DNA of 64,000 nucleotides from Gemmatimonadota bacterium (GTDB lineage Bacteria; Gemmatimonadota; Gemmatimonadetes; Palauibacterales; KS3-K002), in NCBI GenBank assembly GCA_039589995.1, contig JBDHGH010000005.1, positions 2,813 to 66,812 of the forward strand, in the 5' to 3' direction. This document shows positions 1 to 26,161 of this stretch, one piece after another. The position numbers and the translations under genes are program-made. Each line of letters starts with the position of its first letter. Position 1 is the first letter of the stretch. A model generated the notes under the pieces. It was not told the DNA's origin and searched no databases. It saw only the letters and a list, made by a program, of their open reading frames with translations.

Positions 1-380
1 TGGTCTGCTCGGCGGTATCGTTCCCCCCTGAAGAGCAGCCGACAGCTAGGACTAGGGCGGATACGATGATTCGCAAACTCTTAGACATCTTAACTCCACG
101 TGTGGTTAACGTTGCACGGCTCGCTGCCTGCCTGGGCGCGAGCCGGGGCGCGACGGTGGTCGCGTGTGCGGTCGATCGTGGACCGGAGACTACACCCCGC
201 TGCTGGTGACCGCAACTGGCCTGTTGACCGCGCGCTTGGATTTTCGTCGATTGGCTAGCGACGCGAGGGCAGCGAACCGGAGTGCGGATCCGGTGTAGGA
301 AGGACCCTCACTCAGACTTCAGCGCAACGCGGCCATCTGGCTGGCTACTTACAGTCTCGTTCATCTGGAGAATCAAGGTC

Positions 381-2615
381 ATGAGCTTAGCACGACCGAT
401 TACGACCGTCCTTGCAGCGACGCTAGGGTTGTTGGGCGGTACCGCGCCACAGGACGAGGAGGGCTTGAGTTGGCCGCGTGAATTCACGCATGAGGGCTAC
501 CTCGTCGTGGTGTACCAGCCGCAGCTCGAGACGTTCGAGGGTGACAATCTCACGGGGCGAACCGCCGTATCGGTGGTTCCACCGGGCCAAAGTGAGCCGG
601 TGTTCGGAGCCGTGTGGTTCGATGCGATCGTCGAGACCGATCGGGAGGAACGGACGGTAGAGATCGGGGATGTCACCATCCCCAGAGTTCGCTTCCCCGA
701 CGCCAGCGAAGAACAAACGCAGGCGTTGGCGGACGTTCTATCGGAGCAGGCCACAGCCTGGGAGGCGGTCGCGTCGCTGGACCATATCCTGACAAGTCTG
801 GAGATGGTGGAACGAGAGCGTGCGGTCTCGGATGACATTAATACCGAGCCGCCGGATATCCGCGTTACCTACGTGCCGTCCATCCTGGTCACGCTGGATG
901 GCGAGCCGGTACTTCACGACATAGAGAACACAGACCTCCAGGCTGTCGTAAACACGCCCTTTACGATCATCTACTATCCGAGCACGGCGATCTACTATCT
1001 GTATGCGGGACAAGACGCTTGGTTCTACGCCACCGACATGATGGGTTCGTGGGCGGTCACGGACCGAGTCCCCGAGAAAGTGACTTCGCTTGTTCCACCC
1101 GACACGGCACAGGTAGCGGTCGATGAAGCAGACGAGACGGGGCTAGATCTAGATATCAATGACGTCACCGTGGTGGTGGTGACCGAGCCAACGGAGCTGA
1201 TCGTTACAGAGGGGCCACCCGAATACGCCTCGATCGACGGTACCGATCTTCTTTACGTGAGCAATTCGGAGAGCGACGTATTCGTAGAGATAAACTCACA
1301 GCAGTATTTCATCGTTTTGGCCGGGCGATGGTATACCAGCGGGAATTTGGACGGCCCGTGGAGCTTCATTGCGTCGGACTCGATCCCTGCCGATTTCGCC
1401 AAGATCCCTCCAGAGTCGGCGCGCGGTAGCGTGTTGAGTTACGTAGCGGGGACCGATCAGGCGAAGGACGCAGTGCTGGACAACTCGATCCCTCAAACAT
1501 CGGCGATAAGACGCGACGCGACGCTCGAAGTTACCTACGATGGCGATCCCCAGTTCGAGCCCATCGAGGGCACTGAGATGACGTACGCTGTAAACACAGC
1601 CTCGCAAGTCATAGAGGTCGACGGCCGGTATTACGCTTGCGACCAGGCGGTCTGGTACGAATCGGACGGCCCGACCGGGCCGTACACGGTGGCAACCGAA
1701 ATGCCGGACGACATTCAGGACATCCCGCCAGATAACCCGAACTACAACGTCAAGTACGTCTACGTCTACGATTACACACCGGAGGTCGCCTACGTCGGCT
1801 ACACGCCGGGTTACACGGGGAGCTATGTCTACGGTTCTACCGTCGTGTACGGAACGGGCTGGGTCTATCGTCCCTGGATCAGCCCGTTCTTCTTCTATCC
1901 GCGTCCAATGACGTGGGGCTTCCACGTCCGCTTCAACCCGTGGTGGGGCTGGAGTGTTGGGTTCGGATTCCGTTCCGGCCCCTTTCACTTCGGTTTCGCG
2001 ATGGGACCGATGATGTGGCGGCGTCCTATGGGCTGGTGGGGACCGCGCGGCTTCCACCGCGGCTTCAACCGTGGTTTCCACCGCGGCTACGGTGCCGGTT
2101 TTCACGCCGGCTACCGGGCGGGCCAGCGGTCGGCTGCGCGCCAGAACATTTATCGGAACCAGCGCAACGCTTCTCGTAACGTGGATCGGGCCACCGCCCG
2201 CAATCAGATGTCTCAGCGACAGGGCAACCGCGGGGGACAGGCCCGCGACATGTCGCGTACACAGGGTGGCCAGCGCAGCCAGGGTGCGGAGCGACTACAG
2301 CCGTCGCAGGGCCGGAACAACAATCTCTATGCCGACCGCAACGGCGATGTCTACCGTCGGAACTCGGACGGCAGCTGGCAGATGCGCGATAACCAGAACT
2401 GGGGCTCGGCGGACCGATCGGGTACGCAGAACCGCCAGCGGGACGCGAACCGACAGCAGCCGTCGCGGGACCGAGCACAGCCTTCGACTCAGAATCGCAG
2501 CCAGAATCTCAACCGCGAGTACAACTCACGGCAGCGGGGGACGCAGCGGACGCAGAGCTATAATCGGCAGCGCTCGGGTGGTGGCGGGTCCCGTGGTGGA
2601 GGCAGGAGACGTTAA
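381..2615 (+). CDS. Secreted hypothetical protein. Central region rich in aromatic and Gly residues (YVYVYDY, GFHRGFNRGFHRGYGAGFHAGY), followed by a disordered Gln/Asn/Arg/Ser-rich tail of about 240 aa.
   Basis: Long ORF. Start moved to ATG 381 with AAGG 6 nt upstream, which gives a signal-peptide-like N-terminus (MSLARPITTVLAATLGLLGG). The ORF-track start at 282 is a GTG further upstream. No recognisable catalytic motif. Confidence 0.55.
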   Translation: MSLARPITTVLAATLGLLGGTAPQDEEGLSWPREFTHEGYLVVVYQPQLETFEGDNLTGRTAVSVVPPGQSEPVFGAVWFDAIVETDREERTVEIGDVTIPRVRFPDASEEQTQALADVLSEQATAWEAVASLDHILTSLEMVERERAVSDDINTEPPDIRVTYVPSILVTLDGEPVLHDIENTDLQAVVNTPFTIIYYPSTAIYYLYAGQDAWFYATDMMGSWAVTDRVPEKVTSLVPPDTAQVAVDEADETGLDLDINDVTVVVVTEPTELIVTEGPPEYASIDGTDLLYVSNSESDVFVEINSQQYFIVLAGRWYTSGNLDGPWSFIASDSIPADFAKIPPESARGSVLSYVAGTDQAKDAVLDNSIPQTSAIRRDATLEVTYDGDPQFEPIEGTEMTYAVNTASQVIEVDGRYYACDQAVWYESDGPTGPYTVATEMPDDIQDIPPDNPNYNVKYVYVYDYTPEVAYVGYTPGYTGSYVYGSTVVYGTGWVYRPWISPFFFYPRPMTWGFHVRFNPWWGWSVGFGFRSGPFHFGFAMGPMMWRRPMGWWGPRGFHRGFNRGFHRGYGAGFHAGYRAGQRSAARQNIYRNQRNASRNVDRATARNQMSQRQGNRGGQARDMSRTQGGQRSQGAERLQPSQGRNNNLYADRNGDVYRRNSDGSWQMRDNQNWGSADRSGTQNRQRDANRQQPSRDRAQPSTQNRSQNLNREYNSRQRGTQRTQSYNRQRSGGGGSRGGGRRR

Positions 2616-2617
2616 GA

Positions 2618-2832
2618 GGGAGACGAACATCGAACATCGATCAAGGAACATCGAAAGTTGAAGATGGAGACGAACGGCGCGAACAGCTAATAAAGAACAC
2701 CGAATCCGAATATCCAAGGCACAACGTTTTCGCCGTCCGATAGATGTTCGTATTCGATGTTCGATGTTTCCCAGGTTCGTCTCCATCTTCGAACTTCACA
2801 TATCGATGTTGGATGTTCGATGTTCGTCTCCC
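2618..2832. repeat. 215-bp imperfect inverted-repeat element with GGGAGACG...CGTCTCCC termini and many GAACATCG octamers
   Basis: Arms 2618-2676 and 2766-2832 are reverse complements with few mismatches. AT-richer than the flanks. Confidence 0.7.
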
Positions 2833-3636
2833 TAATACCGTCCCCGCCGCCTCTCCTTGGAGGGTAGGATTTCATTGCATGTGGTCCACCAGCCCGTGAC
2901 AATCGTCTCGACAAACTGATCCGGCAGTCCTTCATCTCGCATTTCCTCCGCGAGTGCTTCGTGATCGTACGAGACCGGTACGAATTCGACCTCTAGAGCC
3001 TCGCCTTCCAGCGATAGCATCGTGTACCAGACGTGGGTGTTCCCATCGTTGGCCGGTCGACCGATGGCGCCCACGTTGACGACCAGCCGTTCACCTGGCA
3101 GCTCGCGGCTCCAGTGCAGGCCCGTGTGAGTGCAGAGGATGACATCCGCGTCGAAGTCGTCAAGCAGCTTTTCCAAGAAGTGTGTGGGTGAAGTGGACTC
3201 CCATAGGAACTCGTTCATGCGTCGTGGGCTGACATGGCACAGAAGTGCCCGCCGGTCACCCAGGCGGATGTGCAGATGTTCGGGCAGATCGCCAAGCCAA
3301 GCCCGCCAGGACGAGCTCGTGTTGGTGAGTGTGTAACGGTACGAGATGCGGGCGAAGTGGTTGTCGAGAGGATCGGTGTAGCCGCACTGGCAGTCGTCGA
3401 GGCCGCGGGCGATGGAGTCGTCGTAGTTTCCTCTGATCGTCCGCACATCGTTCTCAACGAGTATAGGGAATACGCGGTCCGGATGCGGGCCGAACGCGCC
3501 GATGTCGCCAAGACAGAACAGTGCTTCCGCACCTCGTCGTCGCGCATCTTCGATTACCGCCCGCAGCGCATGATGATTGGAGTAGACGCCACCAAAGGCG
3601 GCGAGGCGCCTGTACGTGATCGACTCCACGCTCACC
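2832..3636 (-). CDS. Calcineurin-like metallophosphoesterase (YfcE/MJ0936-like)
   Basis: GD...GNYD metallophosphoesterase motifs (LGDIGAFGPHPD, IRGNYDD). GTG start at 3636 overlaps the stop of the upstream radical-SAM gene (GTGA). The 317-aa track ORF from 3785 is probably over-extended. Confidence 0.65.
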
Positions 3637-4582
3637 GTTCCAGGCCGATACCGCTGAAGTTGGAGCAGATGGCGCCGTTCATCCAGCAGGTATAGCAGGC
3701 GTTGTGTTTGAGCTGATAGGGGTGCGCGGCCTCTTCTAGGGTGGCGCCGAGGCGCGCGTCGGCATGGTCGATTAGAATCGGGCAAACAAAGATCCCGCGA
3801 TCGGTGACGATGCGCGCGCTAGAGCAGAGTAGTTGGCTGGTATCGTAGCTCTCCATCATGGCGGACGTAACACGCTCTTCGTCGGAATAGTCGCGAGAGC
3901 GATCCGCCTCTCTTCCAATCTGCAGTGAAGGCAGAATCTTGATTCGAGGACGGTCGTAGCCGATTCGACGGAGGGTGTCGACAAACTGCTGGTAGATCCT
4001 CGCGTCCTCGTGCGGGCACCATACCTGTGCGGCTGTAACGATCGGAAGAAAGCCGTGCTCGACCAGGCGCTTAATTCCCTGCATGGCGCGCTCGAACGTG
4101 CCGGCTCCCCGGATCGGGTCGTTCGTCTCCGCCGAGGGGCCATCGAGGCTGACCCGGAGCTCGAGCGAGAACGTTGAGCCGGCGTCGATCTCGGCCAACC
4201 GACGGACAGTCTTCTCGGGCAGGAGGGTCGCGTTGGTGAGCACGCTGGCCGGGCCAATGGCTAGCGCCCGCTCCAGCATAGCGGGCAGGTCCCTGTTCAT
4301 GAAAGGCTCGCCGCCGGTGAAGTAATACTCCTTGACGCCCCACGCTTTCGACTCGTTCAGGTAAGTGTCGACGGTGTCGAGGTCGAGGAACCAGAAGCTG
4401 TGATTGTCGGGTGCACACGAGATGAAGCAGTGCGTGCAACGCAGATTGCATACGGTGCCGGCGACCTGGAACCAGAGGTAGTCAAGGGCGAGCAGCGGGA
4501 CCTGAGGGGCGGTCTCACTGGATAAGCCCGCCTCAGGGGTTGCTCCAGCGGGCACGGGGCTCAAGTTGTTAGCAGCCATCAT
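3632..4582 (-). CDS. Radical SAM enzyme with a C-terminal Cys-rich twitch/SPASM-like extension
   Basis: CNLRCTHC (CxxxCxxC) cluster, GGEP motif, LDG motif. C-terminal CP...C-x2-C-x6-C cysteine set (NACYTCWMNGAIC). Confidence 0.8.
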   Translation of the reverse strand: MMAANNLSPVPAGATPEAGLSSETAPQVPLLALDYLWFQVAGTVCNLRCTHCFISCAPDNHSFWFLDLDTVDTYLNESKAWGVKEYYFTGGEPFMNRDLPAMLERALAIGPASVLTNATLLPEKTVRRLAEIDAGSTFSLELRVSLDGPSAETNDPIRGAGTFERAMQGIKRLVEHGFLPIVTAAQVWCPHEDARIYQQFVDTLRRIGYDRPRIKILPSLQIGREADRSRDYSDEERVTSAMMESYDTSQLLCSSARIVTDRGIFVCPILIDHADARLGATLEEAAHPYQLKHNACYTCWMNGAICSNFSGIGLER

Positions 4583-4730
4583 CCTGCCGAACGTGCGACC
4601 GAGGTGGTCGGTTCCGCAACCGCGGGCATCGGAGTGTCCGCGCTGAGGAGTGATGGCTGGCCCCGCATTGAATCAGAGTACCGGTGTAGCTAGTTTGTGG
4701 GCCCGTTGAGCGCAACTGGCCGGAGGGTCA

Positions 4731-5471
4731 ATGAAGTGGAAATACGCGGGTAAAAGCGACGTCGGAAAGGTCCGGCAAGGCAACGAGGATTCGCTCTTCG
4801 CTGATGCGGAGTGGGGCGTGTTCATCGTGGCCGACGGCATGGGCGGGCACGTCGCGGGCGAGGTCGCCAGCCAGATCGTCGCGGAGACGGTGGGGCCGGG
4901 GGTCTGCGAGGCGGTCCAGTCGGGTCTCAGAGGGGACGACCTGGAAGACCGCGCTATCGAGTTAATCCTGGAGGCCAACCAGAGGATCATCGAGCGAGCC
5001 GACAGCGAGCCCGAGAAACGCGGCATGGGCACTACGCTCACTCTGATGACTCTAGATCCCGAGAACGGCTACATCTTCAACCAGGTGGGCGACAGTCGTG
5101 GCTACCTGCTGAGAGACGGGTCCCTTATCCAGGTCACGTGTGATCATACCGTTGTGCAGCAGCAGGTGGACCGAGGCGCGCTCACACCCGAGCAGGCTCG
5201 CGACCACCCTCTGTCTCACATCCTGACGCGGGCCCTGGGTACGGAGGCGAACGTCGAGCCCGACACTTACGACGGGTCGGTCCACCCAGGAGACCTTTTT
5301 CTTCTGTGTTCCGATGGGCTCAGCGGTATGCTGACCGACGAGATTTTGAAGGAGATTCTCTCGAGACCCACGGGCGAATTGCAGGAGATCCCCGACGCGC
5401 TGATCTCCGCTGCCAACGCTGCGGGTGGCCTGGACAACATCACGGCAGTCGTCGTGCAAGTAACGGAGTAG
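4731..5471 (+). CDS. PP2C-family Ser/Thr protein phosphatase
   Basis: ADGMGGH, metal-binding Asp motifs and C-terminal GGLDNITAVVV, typical of Stp1/PrpC. GGAGG RBS. Confidence 0.85.
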   Translation: MKWKYAGKSDVGKVRQGNEDSLFADAEWGVFIVADGMGGHVAGEVASQIVAETVGPGVCEAVQSGLRGDDLEDRAIELILEANQRIIERADSEPEKRGMGTTLTLMTLDPENGYIFNQVGDSRGYLLRDGSLIQVTCDHTVVQQQVDRGALTPEQARDHPLSHILTRALGTEANVEPDTYDGSVHPGDLFLLCSDGLSGMLTDEILKEILSRPTGELQEIPDALISAANAAGGLDNITAVVVQVTE

Positions 5472-5474
5472 ACG

Positions 5475-6791
5475 CTAAGCTACGAGCTTCGCGATTTCTT
5501 CTTCTGGCGCTGTAACCAGCTCCAGCACCCTTCCGGAGTCTTTCAACTCTATTCGCGGAAACGTGAAGACCCGAAGCACGCGCGCGGCGTGGTAGAGGTC
5601 ACGGCCGAGGCGTGGCAAGTCGATGAGGCCGGCGCGACCCGCCGCTGTAAGTCGTTCTATCGACTCATCGTGGGACAGCATAAGGATGTCGAGTTCGAGC
5701 ATTCCCGCCTTAGCGGGGTAGTCTATGAACAAACTGCCCGGCTCGAGACCCTCTTCGACGGCCAGTCGGTCCTCCAGCGCCACGCGCAAGTCAGGGCGCT
5801 CGTGAAACCAGGGCGCGACCTCGCGCTGTAGTTCCGTCAGAGCACTCGTCAGTGCATCTCCCCACCACTGAGCGGCACGCTTCGGCAGACGGCGATTCCG
5901 CAGATCGGGTATGTATCGGTCGCGGGCGCGTCGTGCGCTGTCAACATCGCTCTCTTCAGCCAGCGCTTCGATAACGCTCAGGGATTCTTCGTCGCCTTTC
6001 CCCACGATGTGTTCGCTTGATGCCCAGCCATCGGTGAGCGCGTCACGAACGAGTCTTTGAAACACTAACGAAGCAGCGCGTACCGCGTGGTGCCAGTAGA
6101 CGTTCCTGAACATCTGGTACTTGGCGAAGAGAAGAGACTCGAGGGCGGAAATGCCTTGCGCCGCAACTCCGACTTCCATGCGGCCGTTGTGCGGGTCGCG
6201 TAGTAGCCGCAGCGAGTCGAGCAGTCGATCCACATCGATATCACCGTACGGAACGCCGCAGAATTGGGCGTCGCGTGTCAGGTACTCGATCTTGTCTAGA
6301 TCCAGTGACCCGGAGACCAAGCCCTGCAGTGGACTCGCCGAGCGTCCGAGGATCAGCTCATGGATCTCATCGAGGGCGCCGGACCCCAACGCTTCGAGCG
6401 ATGCGGCGACCTCCGGGTCAGCCAGGAACTGTCCGGCGGCCTGCTCGTGATCGTCCGGAACGAGGTCGGTCTCCAGTTCCTCCAGGGTGTGGCTGAACGG
6501 GTAATGGCCGATGTCGTGAAGCAAGCCGGCTAGACGTAGAATCGTGGTGTCGCGGCCGGAAAGGCCAGCCAACTCGCCAGCGAACTCCAACCGGCCCAGC
6601 GCTCGGCCAGTCAGGTGGTATACACCCAGGGCGTGATCGAAGCGTGTGTGGACCGCTCCAGGGTAGACGAGATATGCAAGACCGAGTTGTCTGACCCGCC
6701 GCAGCCGCTGGAATGCAGGCGTATCGATCAGGCGGAGCGCCGCCTCATCGATCCAGATGTTATTCCAAACCGGGTCACGGATAACGGTCAT
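5475..6791 (-). CDS. HD-domain dNTP triphosphohydrolase-like protein (COG1078/SAMHD1-like)
   Basis: N-terminal QRLRRVRQLG, HTRFDHALGV and LLHDIGHYPFSH motifs of HD phosphohydrolases. Confidence 0.75.
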   Translation of the reverse strand: MTVIRDPVWNNIWIDEAALRLIDTPAFQRLRRVRQLGLAYLVYPGAVHTRFDHALGVYHLTGRALGRLEFAGELAGLSGRDTTILRLAGLLHDIGHYPFSHTLEELETDLVPDDHEQAAGQFLADPEVAASLEALGSGALDEIHELILGRSASPLQGLVSGSLDLDKIEYLTRDAQFCGVPYGDIDVDRLLDSLRLLRDPHNGRMEVGVAAQGISALESLLFAKYQMFRNVYWHHAVRAASLVFQRLVRDALTDGWASSEHIVGKGDEESLSVIEALAEESDVDSARRARDRYIPDLRNRRLPKRAAQWWGDALTSALTELQREVAPWFHERPDLRVALEDRLAVEEGLEPGSLFIDYPAKAGMLELDILMLSHDESIERLTAAGRAGLIDLPRLGRDLYHAARVLRVFTFPRIELKDSGRVLELVTAPEEEIAKLVA

Positions 6792-6887
6792 GCCAACTCC
6801 CTGTGTGGACTCATCATAAAGCGACCCGCCCCGGAGGGCGAGTCGCTGGCAGTCGCGCGCCGTCGGATCGAGGGGTCCAGGCCGCTG

Positions 6888-7151
6888 CTAGTGAAGGTTC
6901 TGGTACTTTTTCAGGAGCTCGTTTTCGGTCTCCTGAAAATCCGGATTCGGGGCGATGCAGTCCACAGGGCATACCTCTATGCATTGCGGTTCGTCATGCG
7001 CCCCGACACACTCCGTGCATCGCTGGGGGTCAATCCAGTAGACGGGCACGTCGGTGGCCGAGCCTTCGTTGATGGCGTCGTTAGGGCACACCGGTACGCA
7101 CGCGCCGCAATCGATGCACTCGTCTGTGATCATCATCGCCATGGCTGACAA
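6888..7151 (-). CDS. 4Fe-4S ferredoxin (YfhL-like, two CxxCxxCxxxCP clusters)
   Basis: CIDCGACVPVCP and CTECVGAHDEPQCIEVCP motifs. GGAGG RBS 7 nt upstream of the ATG. Confidence 0.85.
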   Translation of the reverse strand: MSAMAMMITDECIDCGACVPVCPNDAINEGSATDVPVYWIDPQRCTECVGAHDEPQCIEVCPVDCIAPNPDFQETENELLKKYQNLH

Positions 7152-7305
7152 ACCTCCGCTCGCAAACGGGAGTGAGAGCTACGTTGCATCAGTGCGAAAA
7201 CGGCCGCTCCTCGTTCAAACGTGGCATAACCCATTGAATAATAGCGCGATAGGCCACCAAGCGGCCAGCAGTTGAGCGATCGGCCCGCTTGCTGTTTAGG
7301 GCAGC

Positions 7306-9021
7306 TCACCAGGCCGGCGGCTCATAGCGGATCGGACGATACTTCGGGAACCACATCGCCTTCTCTAGACGCTCCTCGAGGTTCTCCAGAGCCTCTTCTT
7401 CCGCGTGACCCTCCTCGACGGCGCGCTTCACGACAGCGCAGGCCACGGCGTGCGAGCATTCACGAATGCGAGCCAACTGTGGGTAGACGGCCACCTCGGC
7501 CAAGTCAGCCTCGGTCACCTTATCGGCCAAAGCCTTGGCAGCGGCAAGGAACATCCCGTCGGTCACTCGCTGTGCCCTCGCGACCCAGACGCCCAAGCCT
7601 ACGCCCGGGAAAACGAACGCGTTATTGCCCTGTCCGATGCGGTACTGTCTGCCCTTGTATTCGACCGGATCGAATGGGCTGCCAGTTGCCACGATCGCGC
7701 GTCCATCCGACCAGTGAATGGCCTGTTCGGCGGTGCACTCGCTCTTGCTGGTCGGATTGGACAATGGGAAGACCATCGGCCTCTCGTTGTTTTCGGCCAT
7801 CGCCTTCACGACCGACTCGGTAAACATCCCGGGGGTTCCCGACGTGCCGATCAGGATCGTCGGCTTGGCGTTGACCACGGTCTCCTCGAGCGTGACCCGG
7901 GATCGGTCCTCGCACTCATAGGCATCGAGCTCGCGGACGTCCCGGGCGTAAGCCGCCTTGAAGTCCTCCAAGCCCACGCGGTCATCCGTGACCAGTCCTC
8001 GACTGTCCACCGTCCAGATCCGCTGCCGCGCCTCCTCCAGGGACAGGCCCTCTTCCAGCATGGCTGAGACTAGCAGGTCGGAGATTCCTTGAGCCGAGGC
8101 TCCGGCTCCCGCGAACAGGATCCGCTGGTCCTTCATCGCTTGGCCGGTGATGCGTAAGCCGCAGAACACACCCGCCACGACTACACCGGCGGTGCCCTGG
8201 ATGTCGTCGTTGAACGTGCAAAACTGGTCGCGGAATCGACTCAGCTGGAAGATCGCGTTGCCCTTGAGAAAGTCTTCCCATTGCAGCAGCGCCTCGGGGT
8301 ATACTTTGCGGACGGCCTCCACGAACTTGTCGATGAATTCTTGGTACTGCTCGCCGCGGACTCGCTTCTGGCGCAGGCCCATGTATAGGGGATCGTTCAG
8401 AAGATCTTCGTTATCCGTGCCGACATCGAGCATGATCGGCAATGTGAGTTCGGGCGGAATGCCTGCGCAGAGTGTGTACAGACATAGCTTGCCGATGGGA
8501 ATTCCCATTCCACCTGCGCCCAGGTCGCCAAGCCCCAAGATTCGTTCGCCGTCCGTTACCACGATGATTGCGGGTGGCCGCGGGTGGTTCGCCAGAATCG
8601 ATTCGATTTCGTCTCGTTGCTCGAAGCTGATGTACAGTCCGCGGGCACGCCGCCAGATGTGTGAGAAGTTCTGGCAGGCCTCCCCGACCACTGGCGTGTA
8701 CACGATGGGCATCATCTCGTCGATGTGCTCGTGGACCAATCGGAAGAAAAGGGTTTCGTTCCGATCCTGAAGGCTGGCCAGGTGAATGAATCGCTCGAGG
8801 TCTGTGCTCTTTGCCTTGTAGTTCTCGTAGACTCGGTGCAACTGCTCCTCGAGCGGGAAAATCGCAGGCGGAACGAGCCCTGCGATGCCCAACGATTCAC
8901 GCTCCTCTGCCGTGAATGCCGTTCCCTTGTTGGTGAAGGGGTTGAGCAGAACCGGTCGACCGGTATGGTGGACCGAGTAGTACTCTTCGCCCGTTCGCGG
9001 ATCTATCTTCACAGCCCACAT
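7306..9021 (-). CDS. NAD(P)-dependent malic enzyme
   Basis: Full-length match to the malic enzyme family (GLGDLG, FNDDIQGTAGV, GAGASAQGI Rossmann motif). Confidence 0.9.
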   Translation of the reverse strand: MWAVKIDPRTGEEYYSVHHTGRPVLLNPFTNKGTAFTAEERESLGIAGLVPPAIFPLEEQLHRVYENYKAKSTDLERFIHLASLQDRNETLFFRLVHEHIDEMMPIVYTPVVGEACQNFSHIWRRARGLYISFEQRDEIESILANHPRPPAIIVVTDGERILGLGDLGAGGMGIPIGKLCLYTLCAGIPPELTLPIMLDVGTDNEDLLNDPLYMGLRQKRVRGEQYQEFIDKFVEAVRKVYPEALLQWEDFLKGNAIFQLSRFRDQFCTFNDDIQGTAGVVVAGVFCGLRITGQAMKDQRILFAGAGASAQGISDLLVSAMLEEGLSLEEARQRIWTVDSRGLVTDDRVGLEDFKAAYARDVRELDAYECEDRSRVTLEETVVNAKPTILIGTSGTPGMFTESVVKAMAENNERPMVFPLSNPTSKSECTAEQAIHWSDGRAIVATGSPFDPVEYKGRQYRIGQGNNAFVFPGVGLGVWVARAQRVTDGMFLAAAKALADKVTEADLAEVAVYPQLARIRECSHAVACAVVKRAVEEGHAEEEALENLEERLEKAMWFPKYRPIRYEPPAW

Positions 9022-9294
9022 CGTGTCCTCCTAGTGATTCTGCTCCCGGCTGCTTGTGCCTGAGATTGGCCATCGGTCCCAGCCGACAGCCCACGCTGTC
9101 CTACAGTGTCCCAGCAGCGACTCCTGAAGGGCCCGTAGGCAGGGTCAACAAGCCGAAAGGCGCAAAAAGCGTTCCCGGTAAAACGAGGGGAATAGGCGTG
9201 TTTGAGGGGGTCAGGAGTACATGAGTTTCGGGGTCCGGAGTGGCCGACCGGGCAGTCGACCTACCGGACCCGGACTACTGCTGCCGGTATCTCC

Positions 9295-10416
9295 CTAGCC
9301 CAGAAGGCTGAGGAAGACTCCAGCTGCGACGGCGGAACCGATGACGCCGGCGACGTTGGGACCCATAGCCGGCATCAGAGGATTGACCCGTCCACCGGTT
9401 TCGTCTGACACGAACTGCTGAACGACGCGCGCCGACATGGGAACGGCGGAGACTCCCGCAGCTCCGATGCACGGGTTGATCTTGTTACGCATGAACAAAT
9501 TCATCAGCTTCGCAAACAGGATCCCACCCGCCGTACTGAACGAGAAAGCGACCGCGCCGAGGACCAGGATCAGGATCGTGCGATAGGTAAGAAAGTGTCC
9601 TGCGTCCATTGTGGCACCGACGGCGATGCCAAGTAGCAACGTGACTATGTCGATGAGCGCGCCTCCGGCCGTCTTGCGAAGCCGATCGGTGACTCCCGAT
9701 TCGCGCAACAGGTTACCGAGCATCAGCATACCGATGAGCGGGGCGCTGGACGGAACTGCCAGCGATGCGATGACGCCCGTCACGATCGGGAAAAGCACCG
9801 CGGCCTTCTTCGACACGGGTATCGCTTGCGGCATGTCTATCGCCCGCTCCTTCTTGGTCGTGAGCAGGCGCATGATGGGTGGCTGAATGATCGGTACCAG
9901 AGACATGTAGCTGTACGCAGCTACGGCGATCGGCCCGAGTAAGTGTGGCGCGAGTTGGCTGGCCAAGAAAATTGACGTCGGGCCATCGGCGCCACCGATG
10001 ATCCCGATCGATGCCGCTTCCTCTGGGGTGAAGCCCATGAAATAGCCAGCCGAAAGCGCAGCGACGAAGATTCCGATCTGTGCGGCCGCACCGAGCAAGA
10101 ATGTGAGCGGCCGGCCCAGCAGAGGCCGAAAATCCGTCAGAGCTCCGACACCAAGAAATATGAGCGGCGGAAGAAGCTCCGTGCGGATTCCGGCGTTGTA
10201 GATGAGAGCAATTATGCCGTCGCCATAGGAACCCATATTGGCCATTGGCAGATTGGCCAGGATAGCTCCGAACCCGATTGGGATCAGGAGCAAGGGCTCG
10301 TAGTTCCTGGCGACGGCCAGGTAGATGAGCGTTCCGGCGATGGCGAACATCGCGAGATTGCCGATGCTCAGATTGGCGAGGCCGGATTGTCGGATCAGCT
10401 CGAGCGCTGTCTCCAT
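9295..10416 (-). CDS. oadB: Na+-transporting oxaloacetate (or other carboxylic acid) decarboxylase beta subunit
   Basis: Polytopic membrane protein with the OadB/GcdB family signature. 1-nt ATGA overlap with oadA. Confidence 0.85.
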   Translation of the reverse strand: METALELIRQSGLANLSIGNLAMFAIAGTLIYLAVARNYEPLLLIPIGFGAILANLPMANMGSYGDGIIALIYNAGIRTELLPPLIFLGVGALTDFRPLLGRPLTFLLGAAAQIGIFVAALSAGYFMGFTPEEAASIGIIGGADGPTSIFLASQLAPHLLGPIAVAAYSYMSLVPIIQPPIMRLLTTKKERAIDMPQAIPVSKKAAVLFPIVTGVIASLAVPSSAPLIGMLMLGNLLRESGVTDRLRKTAGGALIDIVTLLLGIAVGATMDAGHFLTYRTILILVLGAVAFSFSTAGGILFAKLMNLFMRNKINPCIGAAGVSAVPMSARVVQQFVSDETGGRVNPLMPAMGPNVAGVIGSAVAAGVFLSLLG

Positions 10417-12248
10417 CAGCCGATCGTCATGATAGGCTTCGACGAGTCGATCTCATCGCCAATCGCCACGTGTATGGCTGTCACCCTCCCGGCCACAGTT
10501 GTCTTGATATCATGCTTCGCCTTCATCGCTTCAACGGCGGCGACCACGCTCCCTACGCTGACCTGATCGCCTTCCTTCACCAGGATGTCGACGACCTCCA
10601 CTGAACCCGCGAACGTAGAATGCACGGCTATTCCACCGGTGCGAGCGGCGGGAGAGCCTGATCGGCTCTGAGTCTCGGTCGCGGGCTCGAGCGTGACGAC
10701 GAACGTCCGCGATGAGCCGTTCTCTTCGACCGTGCAGCGCGTTGTGGTGGGACCTGTGATCGCCGGTGCCGCCCCGGCGGTAGGTGCCGCTGCCACAGGC
10801 GCAGCCGCAGCCTCCTTCTCTTTCTTGAGCGGTATGTCGATCTTCGATCTTCCGGTCAGGAGACGAATGCCTTCGTTCAACTCCATCTTCTTGCCGGGAA
10901 CCATGGCGGCCAGCACGAGGAAAGTGTTCTCGTCGGTCGTGGCGAGTCCCCGCTCCTCGAGCGCTTCCTTCGCCGCGCTGATATTGTTGGGTGCGGCTTC
11001 GAGGGGGTCACCCTCGAATACCGGCATGTCCAGTTGCTCGGACGCGACCTTCACGACGTCCGGGTCGGACGGCAGCGGAGTCTTACCGAAGTAGCCGAGC
11101 ACCGATCGACCGTAGCCCGCGTCGATCTTCTTCCAGCGCCCGTACATCACGTTATTGAAGGCCTGCAGCCAGTACTGTTGGCTGCCTGGGGTCACGCTGG
11201 TCCACGCGCCGCCGGCCTCCACTACGATTGGGAATTCCGCCAGCACTTCGCTGTACTTCTCCAGGATTCCCGCCTTCACCATCATGTGAACGTTGGGCCC
11301 GATGGCGCCGCCCGGCATCGGAAAACCGAGTACCCGGGCGTCCGCAGTCGTGGTGGTGGGATTGAAGTCGTACTCCTGCAGTCCCTCGTTTAGCAAGTTC
11401 TCGATCTCGGGGAGCTTGGCTACGTCCATATCGAGCGAGTAGCCGGTCCCCTTGAGGCCGTGGGCCAGCGAACGCGCATCCGGCTGAACGGTTCCGCTGG
11501 CCAGCGGTCGGATCGATACATCGACTCCGTCTGCGCCTCCATCGATCGCTGCCATGTAGCAGGCGACCGCCGTGCTCGCCGTGTCGTGCGTGTGCATCCA
11601 CAGCGGCATCTCCGGCGGCATGATCTTTTTTAGCCCGCGCGCTGCGTCGTAAATCGTCTTCGGGTCCGTCGTGCCGCTGGCATCCTTGAGGCAGATGCTG
11701 TCGATGTGCACGCCGCTGTCCAGGAGCTTCTTCCCGATATTGATGTAGAAGTTCGGTGTGTGAACCGTATCCGACTCGAATGGCAATCCCATCAACGCGA
11801 TGCACACCTGATGATGCATGCCCGAGTCGACGATGGGCTGGCCCGTTTTCTCGAGGTTGTCGGTATCGTTCATGAAGTCAAAGTTTCGATCCCATGTCGT
11901 GCCGGACTCATGCATCAGCTGGGCCCGCAGTTGCAGGGCCTCGATGGTCTGGGTCGTGAGCGTTACACCGGAGACCGACCGAGTCAGGATCTGCAGGTCG
12001 GCATCGGGCCCGACCGCGGCCCGGATCTTCCGCATGTCCTCGAAGGGATTTTCGCCCAAGTAGAAATAGGGAGCTTGGTAACGAGCGCCGCCTCCGAACT
12101 CGAAGTGTTTGACTCCGGCTGCCGCAGAAGCTTCCATGGCCGGGAGAAAGTCGTTAAGACGGACCTTGCCCCCGAACGAGCTCTGCAGCCCGTCACGAAA
12201 CGGTGTAAACATCACCCGAATCTTCTTGGGATTCGTTGCGAAAATCAT
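10416..12248 (-). CDS. oadA: Oxaloacetate decarboxylase alpha subunit (carboxyltransferase plus C-terminal biotinyl domain)
   Basis: Pyruvate-carboxyltransferase TIM-barrel N-terminus. Pro/Ala linker. Biotinyl-lysine motif EAMKA near the C-terminus. Confidence 0.85.
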   Translation of the reverse strand: MIFATNPKKIRVMFTPFRDGLQSSFGGKVRLNDFLPAMEASAAAGVKHFEFGGGARYQAPYFYLGENPFEDMRKIRAAVGPDADLQILTRSVSGVTLTTQTIEALQLRAQLMHESGTTWDRNFDFMNDTDNLEKTGQPIVDSGMHHQVCIALMGLPFESDTVHTPNFYINIGKKLLDSGVHIDSICLKDASGTTDPKTIYDAARGLKKIMPPEMPLWMHTHDTASTAVACYMAAIDGGADGVDVSIRPLASGTVQPDARSLAHGLKGTGYSLDMDVAKLPEIENLLNEGLQEYDFNPTTTTADARVLGFPMPGGAIGPNVHMMVKAGILEKYSEVLAEFPIVVEAGGAWTSVTPGSQQYWLQAFNNVMYGRWKKIDAGYGRSVLGYFGKTPLPSDPDVVKVASEQLDMPVFEGDPLEAAPNNISAAKEALEERGLATTDENTFLVLAAMVPGKKMELNEGIRLLTGRSKIDIPLKKEKEAAAAPVAAAPTAGAAPAITGPTTTRCTVEENGSSRTFVVTLEPATETQSRSGSPAARTGGIAVHSTFAGSVEVVDILVKEGDQVSVGSVVAAVEAMKAKHDIKTTVAGRVTAIHVAIGDEIDSSKPIMTIG

Positions 12249-25297: not shown

Positions 25298-26161
25298 ATG
25301 ATGAGGCACAGAGCGGTTCTGATCGCCGTAGCGATGGCCATAACGGTCGGGGCGTCTGGGCGTGCCTCCGCGCAGGGCATCGACCACGCCGGCTTGGATA
25401 CCGTGTTCGCCCATTTTGTGCGGGATGGTCGGGTCGATTACGCTGCTCTCCAGCAAGGTCGTGCCTCACTCGATGAGTACATCGCTGAAGTTTCCGCGGT
25501 TACGACCGAACAGTTCGCCGTCTGGTCGGAGGCGGACCAGATCGCGTATCTCCTGAACGCGTACAACGCGTATGTTCTCGAGACGATCATCGACAATTAT
25601 CCCATCAAGGCGGCCGGATTTTTCAAGAAGCTTACGTCTCCCAAGATGTTCTCGTTCCCCGATAATTCGATTCGTCAGATCGATGGTGTGTTCGATGGTA
25701 TTCCACACAAAGTCGCTGGGACCGAGATGACGCTGGACGGCATAGAGCACGGTGCGCTCCGCGCTGACTACAACGAACCACGGATCCACTTCGCGCTGGT
25801 CTGCGCTGCCGTGAGCTGCCCGCCGTTAAGGGAGGAAGCGTTCCGTGGCGAGGTCCTGGATGATCAGCTTGATAGTCAGGGGCACATCTTTCTGAACGAT
25901 CCGCGACTCAATCGCTTCGAAGCCGATCGAGGAGAAATTTACTTATCGAAGATCTTCGATTGGTTCGGTGACGACTTTCGTCAGTTCGCCAGTGACACGG
26001 GGTACCAACGTGACGAGAAAGTGAACGGTGTGTTGACCTTCGTGTCCCGCTACCTCGTTGACCGAGTCGTTGGATTCTTGGGGACTGGGGAGTACAAGGT
26101 CGATTTCCTCAAGTACGATTGGACCCTCAACGACCAGGCAGTCGCAGCCGCCACTCAGTGA
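25298..26161 (+). CDS. DUF547 domain secreted protein
   Basis: Signal peptide. IHFALVCAAVSCPPL motif characteristic of DUF547. Confidence 0.7.
   Translation: MMRHRAVLIAVAMAITVGASGRASAQGIDHAGLDTVFAHFVRDGRVDYAALQQGRASLDEYIAEVSAVTTEQFAVWSEADQIAYLLNAYNAYVLETIIDNYPIKAAGFFKKLTSPKMFSFPDNSIRQIDGVFDGIPHKVAGTEMTLDGIEHGALRADYNEPRIHFALVCAAVSCPPLREEAFRGEVLDDQLDSQGHIFLNDPRLNRFEADRGEIYLSKIFDWFGDDFRQFASDTGYQRDEKVNGVLTFVSRYLVDRVVGFLGTGEYKVDFLKYDWTLNDQAVAAATQ

Follow-up and report, generated by a model that had tools for sequence, protein, structure and literature searches.

The 64,000-nucleotide stretch of Gemmatimonadota contig JBDHGH010000005.1 analyzed here (the window) carries near its beginning two adjacent minus-strand genes, encoding a radical S-adenosylmethionine (SAM) protein and a metallophosphoesterase (MPE)-fold protein. 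A preliminary description, made from the letters of the sequence, had presented the two as embedded with a PP2C phosphatase, an HD-domain protein and a ferredoxin. The unit is a translationally coupled two-gene operon, radical SAM gene first and MPE gene second, and not this five-gene neighborhood. The features of the pair are listed below; the cysteine positions were read from the translations and, for the CxC, from an alignment.

3632..4582, minus strand: radical SAM gene, first of the two-gene operon; 316 aa, probably Twitch-type (PF04055, 74.4 bits, cut-off 29.5)
2832..3635, minus strand: MPE-fold gene, second in the operon; 267 aa, Car1-like subclade with a degenerate metal site
3632..3635, minus strand: GTGA, in which the MPE start codon GTG (3635..3633) overlaps the radical SAM stop codon TGA (3634..3632)
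4427..4450, minus strand: CX3CX2C motif CNLRCTHC of the radical SAM protein, residues 45-52, ligating the SAM-cleaving [4Fe-4S] cluster
3665..3826, minus strand: C-terminal cysteines of the radical SAM protein, C253-x13-C267-x28-C296-x2-C299-x6-C306, predicted to hold a single auxiliary Fe-S cluster (Twitch-like)
3384..3392, minus strand: C82-Q-C84 of the MPE, aligning with Cys74-x-Cys76 of Car1-type arsenate reductases
2877..2879, minus strand: C253 of the MPE, in the clade-specific C-terminal extension GWWTTC, a candidate third thiol

The radical SAM and MPE-fold proteins

The N-termini of 45 homologues fit an MPE start at the GTG at 3635 (consensus MxxxxxxYxRIAAFGG). The NCBI call for this protein is 265 aa long and begins at the next GTG, at 3629, two codons later. 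With either start the two genes lie 0-2 nt apart, so they are coupled in both cases, and the 4-nt overlap recurs in the close relatives L093, L094 and L095. The GTGA overlap, which the preliminary description had taken as a sign of co-expression, is thus seen in the sequence, and the Pfam and NCBIfam matches confirmed its naming of the radical SAM, MPE, PP2C, HD and ferredoxin genes. Its account of the radical SAM protein as a Twitch/SPASM-like enzyme with a GGEP motif and a C-terminal cysteine cluster was likewise supported.

Membership of the radical SAM superfamily follows from CNLRCTHC together with the PF04055 match above cut-off. In an alignment of 24 family sequences, C45, C49 and C52 are invariant, as are C253, C267, C296 and C299 of the C-terminal group, and 90% or more of the sequences have C306 as well; the GGEP motif occupies residues 90-93. 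A SPASM motif has seven cysteines and a Twitch about four. The spacing C-x13-C...C-x2-C fits one fully ligated auxiliary cluster, and the Pfam SPASM model PF13186 did not match the protein.

The NCBIfam scan left the radical SAM protein below every cut-off. The best-scoring model was NF049973 (the Rv1681 family) with 101.9 bits against a cut-off of 380, and the ArsS model TIGR04167 gave 56.4 bits against 300. A housekeeping identity, which the preliminary description had named beforehand as a result that would speak against it, was rejected for the families that the scan returned: MoaA scored 48-50 bits against 284-325, NirJ 49 against 515 and heme b synthase (AhbD) 51 against 500. The 25 top-scoring families listed included neither QueE nor the anaerobic RNR activase. 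Viperin was rejected likewise (38 bits, cut-off 180). The maturase models for ribosomally synthesized and post-translationally modified peptides (RiPPs) reached 54-72 bits, with StsB at 72 and ScmF at 64, against cut-offs of 400-650. An exhaustive search of 1.84 billion cluster representatives returned just 102 at E ≤ 1e-30, so the family is a compact, small one.

AlphaFold2 modeled the radical SAM protein with a mean predicted local distance difference test score (pLDDT) of 81. The best Foldseek matches were BlsE, SkfB, anSME and MoaA, with SuiB also among the fold matches. The first four, all Twitch/SPASM enzymes, are the nearest solved structures by both sequence and fold (14-22% identity, template modeling score (TM) about 0.5-0.58), but their substrates (a nucleoside sugar acid, peptides and GTP) are unrelated. 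The MPE model (pLDDT 89) was closest to the Ap4A hydrolase SapH (TM 0.79), with the archaeal proteins PF1291 and PH1004 also close. The nearest solved MPE folds, SapH (Spr1479), PF1291 and PH1004, thus lie at TM 0.72-0.79; PF1291 and PH1004 also lack the DxH of motif I, whereas none of the three has a CxC insert and SapH has a full binuclear site. For both proteins, the models yielded generic fold neighbors only.

Two Pfam models recognized the MPE-fold protein, PF12850 (Metallophos_2; 39 bits, cut-off 27) and PF00149 (23.1 bits, cut-off 21.5), and no NCBIfam model matched it. In a collection of plasmids its best annotated relatives, 31-32% identical, were all found within ars operons. The gene order is arsR-MPE-arsM in Paraclostridium, arsR-arsN2-arsM-MPE-ACR3 in Adhaeribacter and arsM-arsR-MPE-arsC-arsC in Rubrobacter, and in Pedobacter the context is ACR3-MPE. 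Adhaeribacter belongs to the same bacterial family as Rufibacter. The MPE-type arsenate reductase Car1 of Rufibacter tibetensis depends on Cys74 and Cys76, both essential, and a Paraclostridium gene of just this kind is about 40% identical to it (PMC12124457). In the alignment, C82-Q-C84 of the window protein stands opposite C74-G-C76 in the ars-operon MPE from Adhaeribacter, and the CxC characteristic of Car1 is therefore present. Work by Shen et al. in 2024 is said to have described Car1 as carrying out thioredoxin-coupled, metal-dependent reduction of As(V).

The CxC insert and the GNY form of motif III are common to the ars-operon MPEs and the clade of the window protein and are absent from non-ars MPEs. 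All three cysteines, C82, C84 and C253, were found in 70 of 70 orthologues; the GWWTTC extension is absent from the ars-operon MPEs. The metal site is degenerate. Motif I reads GxY (G16, Y18), motif III GNY and motif V THTG, and the GD motif, N70, H134 and H170, ligands of metal B, are retained, all of them invariant in the 70 orthologues. The complete binuclear ligand set (DxH, GD, GNH(D/E), H, GHxH) was sought in the protein and not found. With DxH changed to GxY in motif I and GHxH to THTG in motif V, the three metal-A-specific ligands are all lost. Without the motif I D and H and the final H of motif V, a binuclear hydrolase is unlikely. A conventional hydrolase partner is accordingly not supported: one of two metal sites is lost and an arsenate-reductase-type CxC is carried. 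We propose that the protein derives from Car1-type reductases and, while keeping their redox CxC pair, lost one metal site and acquired a third invariant cysteine.

Conservation and neighbors of the pair in other genomes

A scan of one genome per species gave more than 560 relatives, and the best 80 loci were inspected for pairing. In about 70 of these, from at least 14 phyla, the radical SAM gene is directly followed by the MPE gene in the same orientation, so the conservation of the pairing, which the preliminary description had made a point to check, extends across phyla. The loci span Gemmatimonadota, Planctomycetota, Acidobacteriota, Latescibacterota, Calditrichota, Ignavibacteria, Bacteroidota, Verrucomicrobiota, Eisenbacteria, Myxococcota, Fibrobacterota, Elusimicrobiota and Ktedonobacteria, with further groups besides. 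The projected gap between the two genes is at most 50 nt in 45 of 72 measured loci, a gene is inserted between them in only four, and one natural protein (P0383) is a fusion of the MPE and the radical SAM enzyme. The MPE orthologues are 55-65% identical across phyla. The pairing exceeds chance.

To survey the neighbors, the open reading frames (ORFs) within 6 kb in 82 orthologous loci were clustered all against all and then checked with hidden Markov models. The commonest was a flavin adenine dinucleotide (FAD)/NAD(P)H oxidoreductase of the pyridine-nucleotide-disulfide type without a CxxC, found in 46 of the 82 loci. TIGR04282 proteins (DUF2064; 189 bits, cut-off 134) were near the pair in 16 loci, ArsM-like methyltransferases in 12, TIGR04169 AhpD-like proteins (195 bits, cut-off 120) in 10, SSS-type transporters in five and PiT-type transporters in two. 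Taken together, an ArsM-like, TIGR04282 or TIGR04169 gene stands beside the pair in 26 loci. Tight operons occur where the radical SAM orthologue is 54-58% identical to the window enzyme: TIGR04282-FAD-radical SAM-MPE-ArsM in L018, radical SAM-MPE-TIGR04282-PiT-ArsM-TIGR04169 in L005 and TIGR04282-FAD-radical SAM-PiT-MPE-ArsM in L010, from Calditrichota. The last also holds, at 2978-3355 between the FAD and radical SAM genes, a TIGR02436 four-helix-bundle gene, which we take to be of the type encoded in 23S rRNA intervening sequences.

In the ArsM-like neighbors, none of the four cysteines with which ArsM binds As(III) is missing, and the model that fits them best is that of the arsinothricin-type ArsM (352 bits). 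The radical SAM domain is joined to ArsM in three proteins (P0253, P0334, P0388), to the FAD oxidoreductase in two (P0243, P0245), to TIGR04282 in one (P0362) and to thioredoxin in one (P0320). In nearly all clusters the radical SAM gene of the pair is the sole one; a second was found only in L071, L072 and L075. The FAD partner was rejected as a classical thioredoxin reductase, having no CxxC and only remote YpdA-like similarity, and its candidate roles are those of an electron donor or of a monooxygenase-type or reductase-type enzyme.

A plasmid of a cultured Roseomonas has a distant version of the cluster, which includes TIGR04282 and in which a phosphonate-type ABC transporter separates the radical SAM gene from the MPE gene. 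DUF547 genes occur twice in this Roseomonas radical SAM/TIGR04282 cluster and also near L008 and L072. In the Paraclostridium bifermentans plasmid pHD0315_2-1 (L083), a gene annotated as arsM at 5785-6543 has an in-frame TGA at a conserved As(III)-binding cysteine (…LYCG*VTGA…), so this ArsM is probably a selenocysteine-containing protein.

Surroundings of the pair in the window

The remaining features near the pair are the following.

4583..4730, no strand: divergent spacer between the radical SAM and PP2C genes, presumed promoter region (148 bp)
4731..5471, plus strand: Stp1-type PP2C phosphatase, opposite-strand neighbor (NF033484, 237 bits, cut-off 230)
5475..6791, minus strand: HD/HD_assoc_2 protein of the SAMHD1/EF1143 type, putative deoxynucleoside triphosphate (dNTP) triphosphohydrolase (PF01966 and PF19276)
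6888..7151, minus strand: YfhL-type 2x[4Fe-4S] ferredoxin (NF033683, 111 bits, cut-off 86)
2616..2832, no strand: near-perfect hairpin, about 215 nt long, that takes up the whole convergent gap beyond the MPE stop (-113.7 kcal/mol on folding, z = -11.9)

In the spacer 4583-4730, a sigma-70 consensus promoter was sought and not matched. A search of 4570-4740 for inverted repeats found none, and the Rfam scan of 2400-7400 at E ≤ 1 gave no riboswitch or other noncoding RNA. Small ORFs of at least 20 aa, sought in 4560-4750, were of chance size only (26-48 aa, all within 4566-4715) and unconserved, in agreement with the preliminary description, which had seen no precursor peptide.

The HD protein has its best PDB sequence matches in 2hek (E 1e-44) and 2o6i (8e-36) and scored below cut-off with the NCBIfam dGTPase models. 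The PP2C gene converges on it tail to tail and ends 3 nt short of its stop, exactly as described before. The ferredoxin gene does lie upstream on the same strand as the pair, as the preliminary description had it, but just outside the range 2832-6791 that it had given for the whole group. Further upstream, at 7306-12248 on the minus strand, are genes for malic enzyme and for the beta and alpha subunits of oxaloacetate decarboxylase.

The order malic enzyme-ferredoxin-HD-PP2C-radical SAM-MPE is fully kept in the closest relatives, and this recurrence of the same upstream order in close Gemmatimonadota relatives marks the neighborhood as ordinary core-metabolism synteny. Adjacency of the HD gene to the pair is confined to a single clade of Gemmatimonadota (the window together with L001-L003 and L093-L095) and occurs in no other phylum; the PP2C gene, on the opposite strand, is missing between the HD and radical SAM genes in L001-L003; and the ferredoxin gene is syntenic in close relatives only. 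With conservation confined to one clade, the three were rejected as functional partners, and the claim that the pair is embedded with them as a unit was given up: the arrangement is lineage synteny, not a system. The ferredoxin, a syntenic neighbor, would be conceivable as an electron donor in principle only.

On the other side, a 777-aa ORF (282-2615, plus strand) converges with the MPE gene. It has a signal-like N-terminus and a long Arg/Gly/Asn/Gln-rich low-complexity C-terminal tail and matched no Pfam or NCBIfam model; counterparts of 771 and 727 aa adjoin the pair in L094 and L089, respectively. The hairpin between the two is composed of GAACATCGAACATCG-type short repeats and is relatively AT-rich compared with its surroundings. 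The arm at 2618-2638 is the exact reverse complement of that at 2812-2832, and neither recurs in the window. The hairpin may terminate transcription in both directions or represent a palindromic (mobile) element.

The search of the window for accessory genes gave only two hits, a distant match to the ArsR family (21.2 kb) and a DUF547 gene (25.3 kb), which is unlinked. The latter (25298-26161, plus strand) lies 20 kb off among unrelated genes (amidohydrolase, Omp85).

A possible role in arsenic chemistry

The preliminary description had held the function of the pair not to be inferable, yet its context in other genomes points to arsenic or metalloid chemistry. We tentatively suggest, with a probability of about 0.4, that an undescribed module for the transformation of arsenic (metalloids) would have the pair as its core. 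Two characterized radical SAM enzymes and one MPE offer themselves for comparison.

ArsS (TIGR04167), of arsenosugar biosynthesis, adds a 5'-deoxyadenosyl group to dimethylarsenite (bioRxiv paper). The window enzyme shares with it the order of an N-terminal CX3CX2C radical SAM core and a cysteine-containing C-terminal domain, and hhalign aligned the two with a probability of 98.8% over 235 columns, reaching the first two C-terminal cysteines. At least one of the ArsM, TIGR04282 and TIGR04169 genes is nearby in the 26 loci counted above, but none is in the window. On the other hand, identity to ArsS is only 23%, the window enzyme has no DUF3641 match, and enzymes of its type are obligately paired with an MPE-fold protein and often accompanied by an FAD oxidoreductase. 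We know of no pairing of ArsS with an MPE or an FAD oxidoreductase. Both families occur side by side in L072 (10027-11435), from a Myxococcota-type metagenome-assembled genome. Here the radical SAM-MPE pair has an SSS transporter upstream, and a canonical ArsS gene (343 bits, cut-off 300) lies with TIGR04169 about 3 kb downstream of the pair.

The arsinothricin enzyme ArsL transfers a 3-amino-3-carboxypropyl group to As(III) and has a long N-terminal domain, a CX3CX2C in mid-protein at 209-216 and, toward the C-terminus at 439-443, an arsenic-binding CCxxC (bioRxiv paper). The window protein differs in its length of 316 aa, in its CX3CX2C at 45-52 and in having no CCxxC, and so does not have the features of an ArsL. 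The likeness is in the company: in the 12 loci with ArsM-like genes the partner methyltransferase is closest to the arsinothricin-type ArsM, and the proposed logic would be the same, with the radical SAM enzyme making the first C-As bond and ArsM then methylating.

With Car1 and its ars-operon relatives, the window MPE has in common the fold, the CxC at the positions of Cys74 and Cys76, GNY in place of GNH in motif III, and about 31-32% identity (to the ars-operon relatives). It differs in that its clade has GG(V/P)Y for the SD(I/V)H of motif I and THTG for the GHTH of motif V, which removes the metal-A site, and in an extra C-terminal tail, GWWTTC...KERxRG, with an invariant cysteine. In addition, MPEs of the window clade are never in ars resistance operons and always beside the radical SAM gene. 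The pair thus resembles the ArsS and ArsL systems but falls outside both by their defining features, and the MPE resembles Car1 but departs from it in metal site and operon setting.

The nearest family model, that of Rv1681 (MoeX; NF049973, function unknown), is related at an hhalign probability of 99.9% and 26% identity, and clusters of that family also have CMD/AhpD-like, DUF2064 and GT2 genes. However, the 101.9 bits of the window enzyme compare with 536 bits for a true member (L087), the Rv1681 family lacks C253 and C267, and its partners are PhnD-like, acyl-CoA-dehydrogenase-like and disulfide oxidoreductase proteins, not MPEs. Rv1681-family radical SAM genes were found in clusters on plasmids of Mycolicibacterium (L087) and Miltoncostaea (L088), together with CMD/AhpD-like, deiodinase-like, glutaredoxin, PhnD-like, acyl-CoA-dehydrogenase-like, GT2 and DUF2064 genes; the Miltoncostaea cluster adjoins selABD. 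These clusters look like a related uncharacterized system.

The chemistry, each step of which we infer from gene structure, motifs, conservation, fusions and neighborhoods, could run as follows. The MPE-fold protein, of Car1-type descent, would reduce As(V) or a pentavalent organoarsenical via C82 and C84, and/or hold As(III) on C82, C84 and C253, and would pass As(III) to the Twitch-type radical SAM enzyme. There, a SAM-derived carbon radical would add to the arsenic lone pair, so that a C-As bond is made (or, less likely, broken), in the manner of ArsS and ArsL, with the auxiliary cluster accepting or donating the odd electron. In other genomes, the FAD/NAD(P)H oxidoreductase would supply electrons or recycle thiols, an arsinothricin-type ArsM would methylate the alkyl-As(III) product, and TIGR04282 and TIGR04169 proteins would elaborate it further, phosphate-type transporters also completing the pathway. 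It is rather doubtful that the pair is a third, phylogenetically widespread radical SAM route to C-As bonds after ArsS and ArsL, in which the MPE, its binuclear center lost, would act as a dedicated arsenate reductase and As(III) chaperone docked on, or fused to, the radical SAM enzyme.

Several observations weigh against the assignment to arsenic. Reductase activity of the MPE is not assured, because the metal-A ligands kept by Car1-type proteins are lost. The radical SAM protein lacks the CCxxC arsenic site of ArsL, and its C-terminal cysteines probably all serve the Fe-S cluster. The 64-kb window was searched for ArsM, FAD, TIGR04282, TIGR04169, PiT, SSS, ArsR, ACR3, ArsC, ArsS and GT2 genes, and nothing relevant was found; 56 of the 82 loci have no arsenic-linked neighbor within 6 kb; and ArsR, ACR3 and ArsC, sought beside the pair in the window and in the 82 loci, were found in none. 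The 'arsenosugar' names of TIGR04282 and TIGR04169 are based on association only. Finally, the canonical ArsS beside the pair in L072 implies that the radical SAM enzyme does not simply stand in for ArsS.

On such grounds, and as the chief rival reading, the same module could act on a substrate other than arsenic, the CxC MPE being a thiol/disulfide or a sulfur/selenium partner and the radical SAM enzyme working with the FAD reductase in a cofactor, lipid or sugar pathway shared by these phyla, with arsenic genes as occasional neighbors. The many stand-alone pairs and the loci, the window included, that lack arsenic-related neighbors speak for this, as do the generic nature of the commonest partner and the 55-65% identity of the MPE across phyla, which suggests a core function; the related Rv1681-family clusters adjoin selenium, CMD, glutaredoxin and disulfide-oxidoreductase genes. 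We nevertheless consider it somewhat unlikely, given two independent lines toward arsenic: the MPE shares its derived characters, CxC and GNY, with ars-operon MPEs only, and ArsM-type methyltransferases retaining the As(III)-binding cysteines recur as fusion partners or neighbors of the radical SAM domain. Phosphate-type transporters occur in the clusters too. If arsenic is the substrate, the module might instead degrade or detoxify organoarsenicals, with the radical SAM enzyme as a C-As lyase or demethylase (compare PhnJ for C-P bonds) and the MPE first reducing a pentavalent substrate. The arsenic context would be identical, the pair often stands alone with no biosynthetic partners, and the known C-As lyase ArsI has as its substrates organoarsenicals first reduced to the trivalent state. 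But where partners are present they are of the biosynthesis type (arsinothricin-type ArsM, TIGR04282, TIGR04169), and ArsS, the nearest characterized arsenic-acting relative, forms bonds, which makes degradation improbable.

The preliminary description had named as one hypothesis nucleotide modification or antiviral-type chemistry, with a radical SAM enzyme acting on a nucleotide plus a phosphoesterase. In fuller form, a viperin- or MoaA-like radical SAM enzyme would modify a nucleotide, the phosphoesterase would trim its product and the HD dNTPase would cooperate, possibly as an antiviral system. The same-strand HD gene in the Gemmatimonadota clade fits this idea, and so do BlsE, the closest solved sequence and fold match, which acts on a nucleoside, the MPE fold nearest to an Ap4A hydrolase and weak pVip matches to the radical SAM core. 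The wider comparison did not support it, and it is now very improbable: the HD adjacency is found in no other phylum, the viperin and MoaA scores lie far below their cut-offs, the MPE has lost its metal-A ligands, and the locus has no defense-island features. PADLOC reported no system-level match, only weak core hits (pVip 44 bits, dGTPase 28 bits), and none for the MPE. Least credible of all is a SPASM/Twitch-type maturase of RiPPs or proteins acting on an unannotated precursor peptide. It can draw on the weak similarity to sactipeptide- and SCIFF-type maturases (StsB, ScmF) and on SkfB and SuiB among the fold matches, but all these scores are far under the cut-offs, there is no conserved small ORF and no RiPP recognition element (RRE) domain, protease or exporter, and what is conserved beside the enzyme is an MPE rather than a peptide.

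In the literature, we found no paper that ties arsenic or an MPE to Rv1681, to DUF2064 or to the radical SAM family of the pair, and no paper or curated model for the radical SAM family, the MPE subclade or their pairing. To our knowledge, ArsS and ArsL are the only enzymes known to form C-As bonds by radical SAM chemistry, and no biosynthetic origin has been established for many of the organoarsenicals in the environment (arsenolipids, arsenobetaine precursors, bacterial arsenosugars). Widespread and conserved across phyla, and with Rosetta-stone fusions that join the radical SAM domain to ArsM, TIGR04282 or the MPE of the pair, the module offers two concrete genes for expression and assay. 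Should the arsenic link fail, the pair would still be one of the better conserved radical SAM gene pairs that lack an assigned function. If the link is true, two large families now annotated as 'radical SAM protein' and 'metallophosphoesterase family protein' would receive names, and a phosphoesterase fold would have been turned into a metal-poor thiol protein, extending the Car1 finding. Organoarsenical synthesis would then be common in Planctomycetota, Gemmatimonadota, Acidobacteriota and many uncultured phyla.

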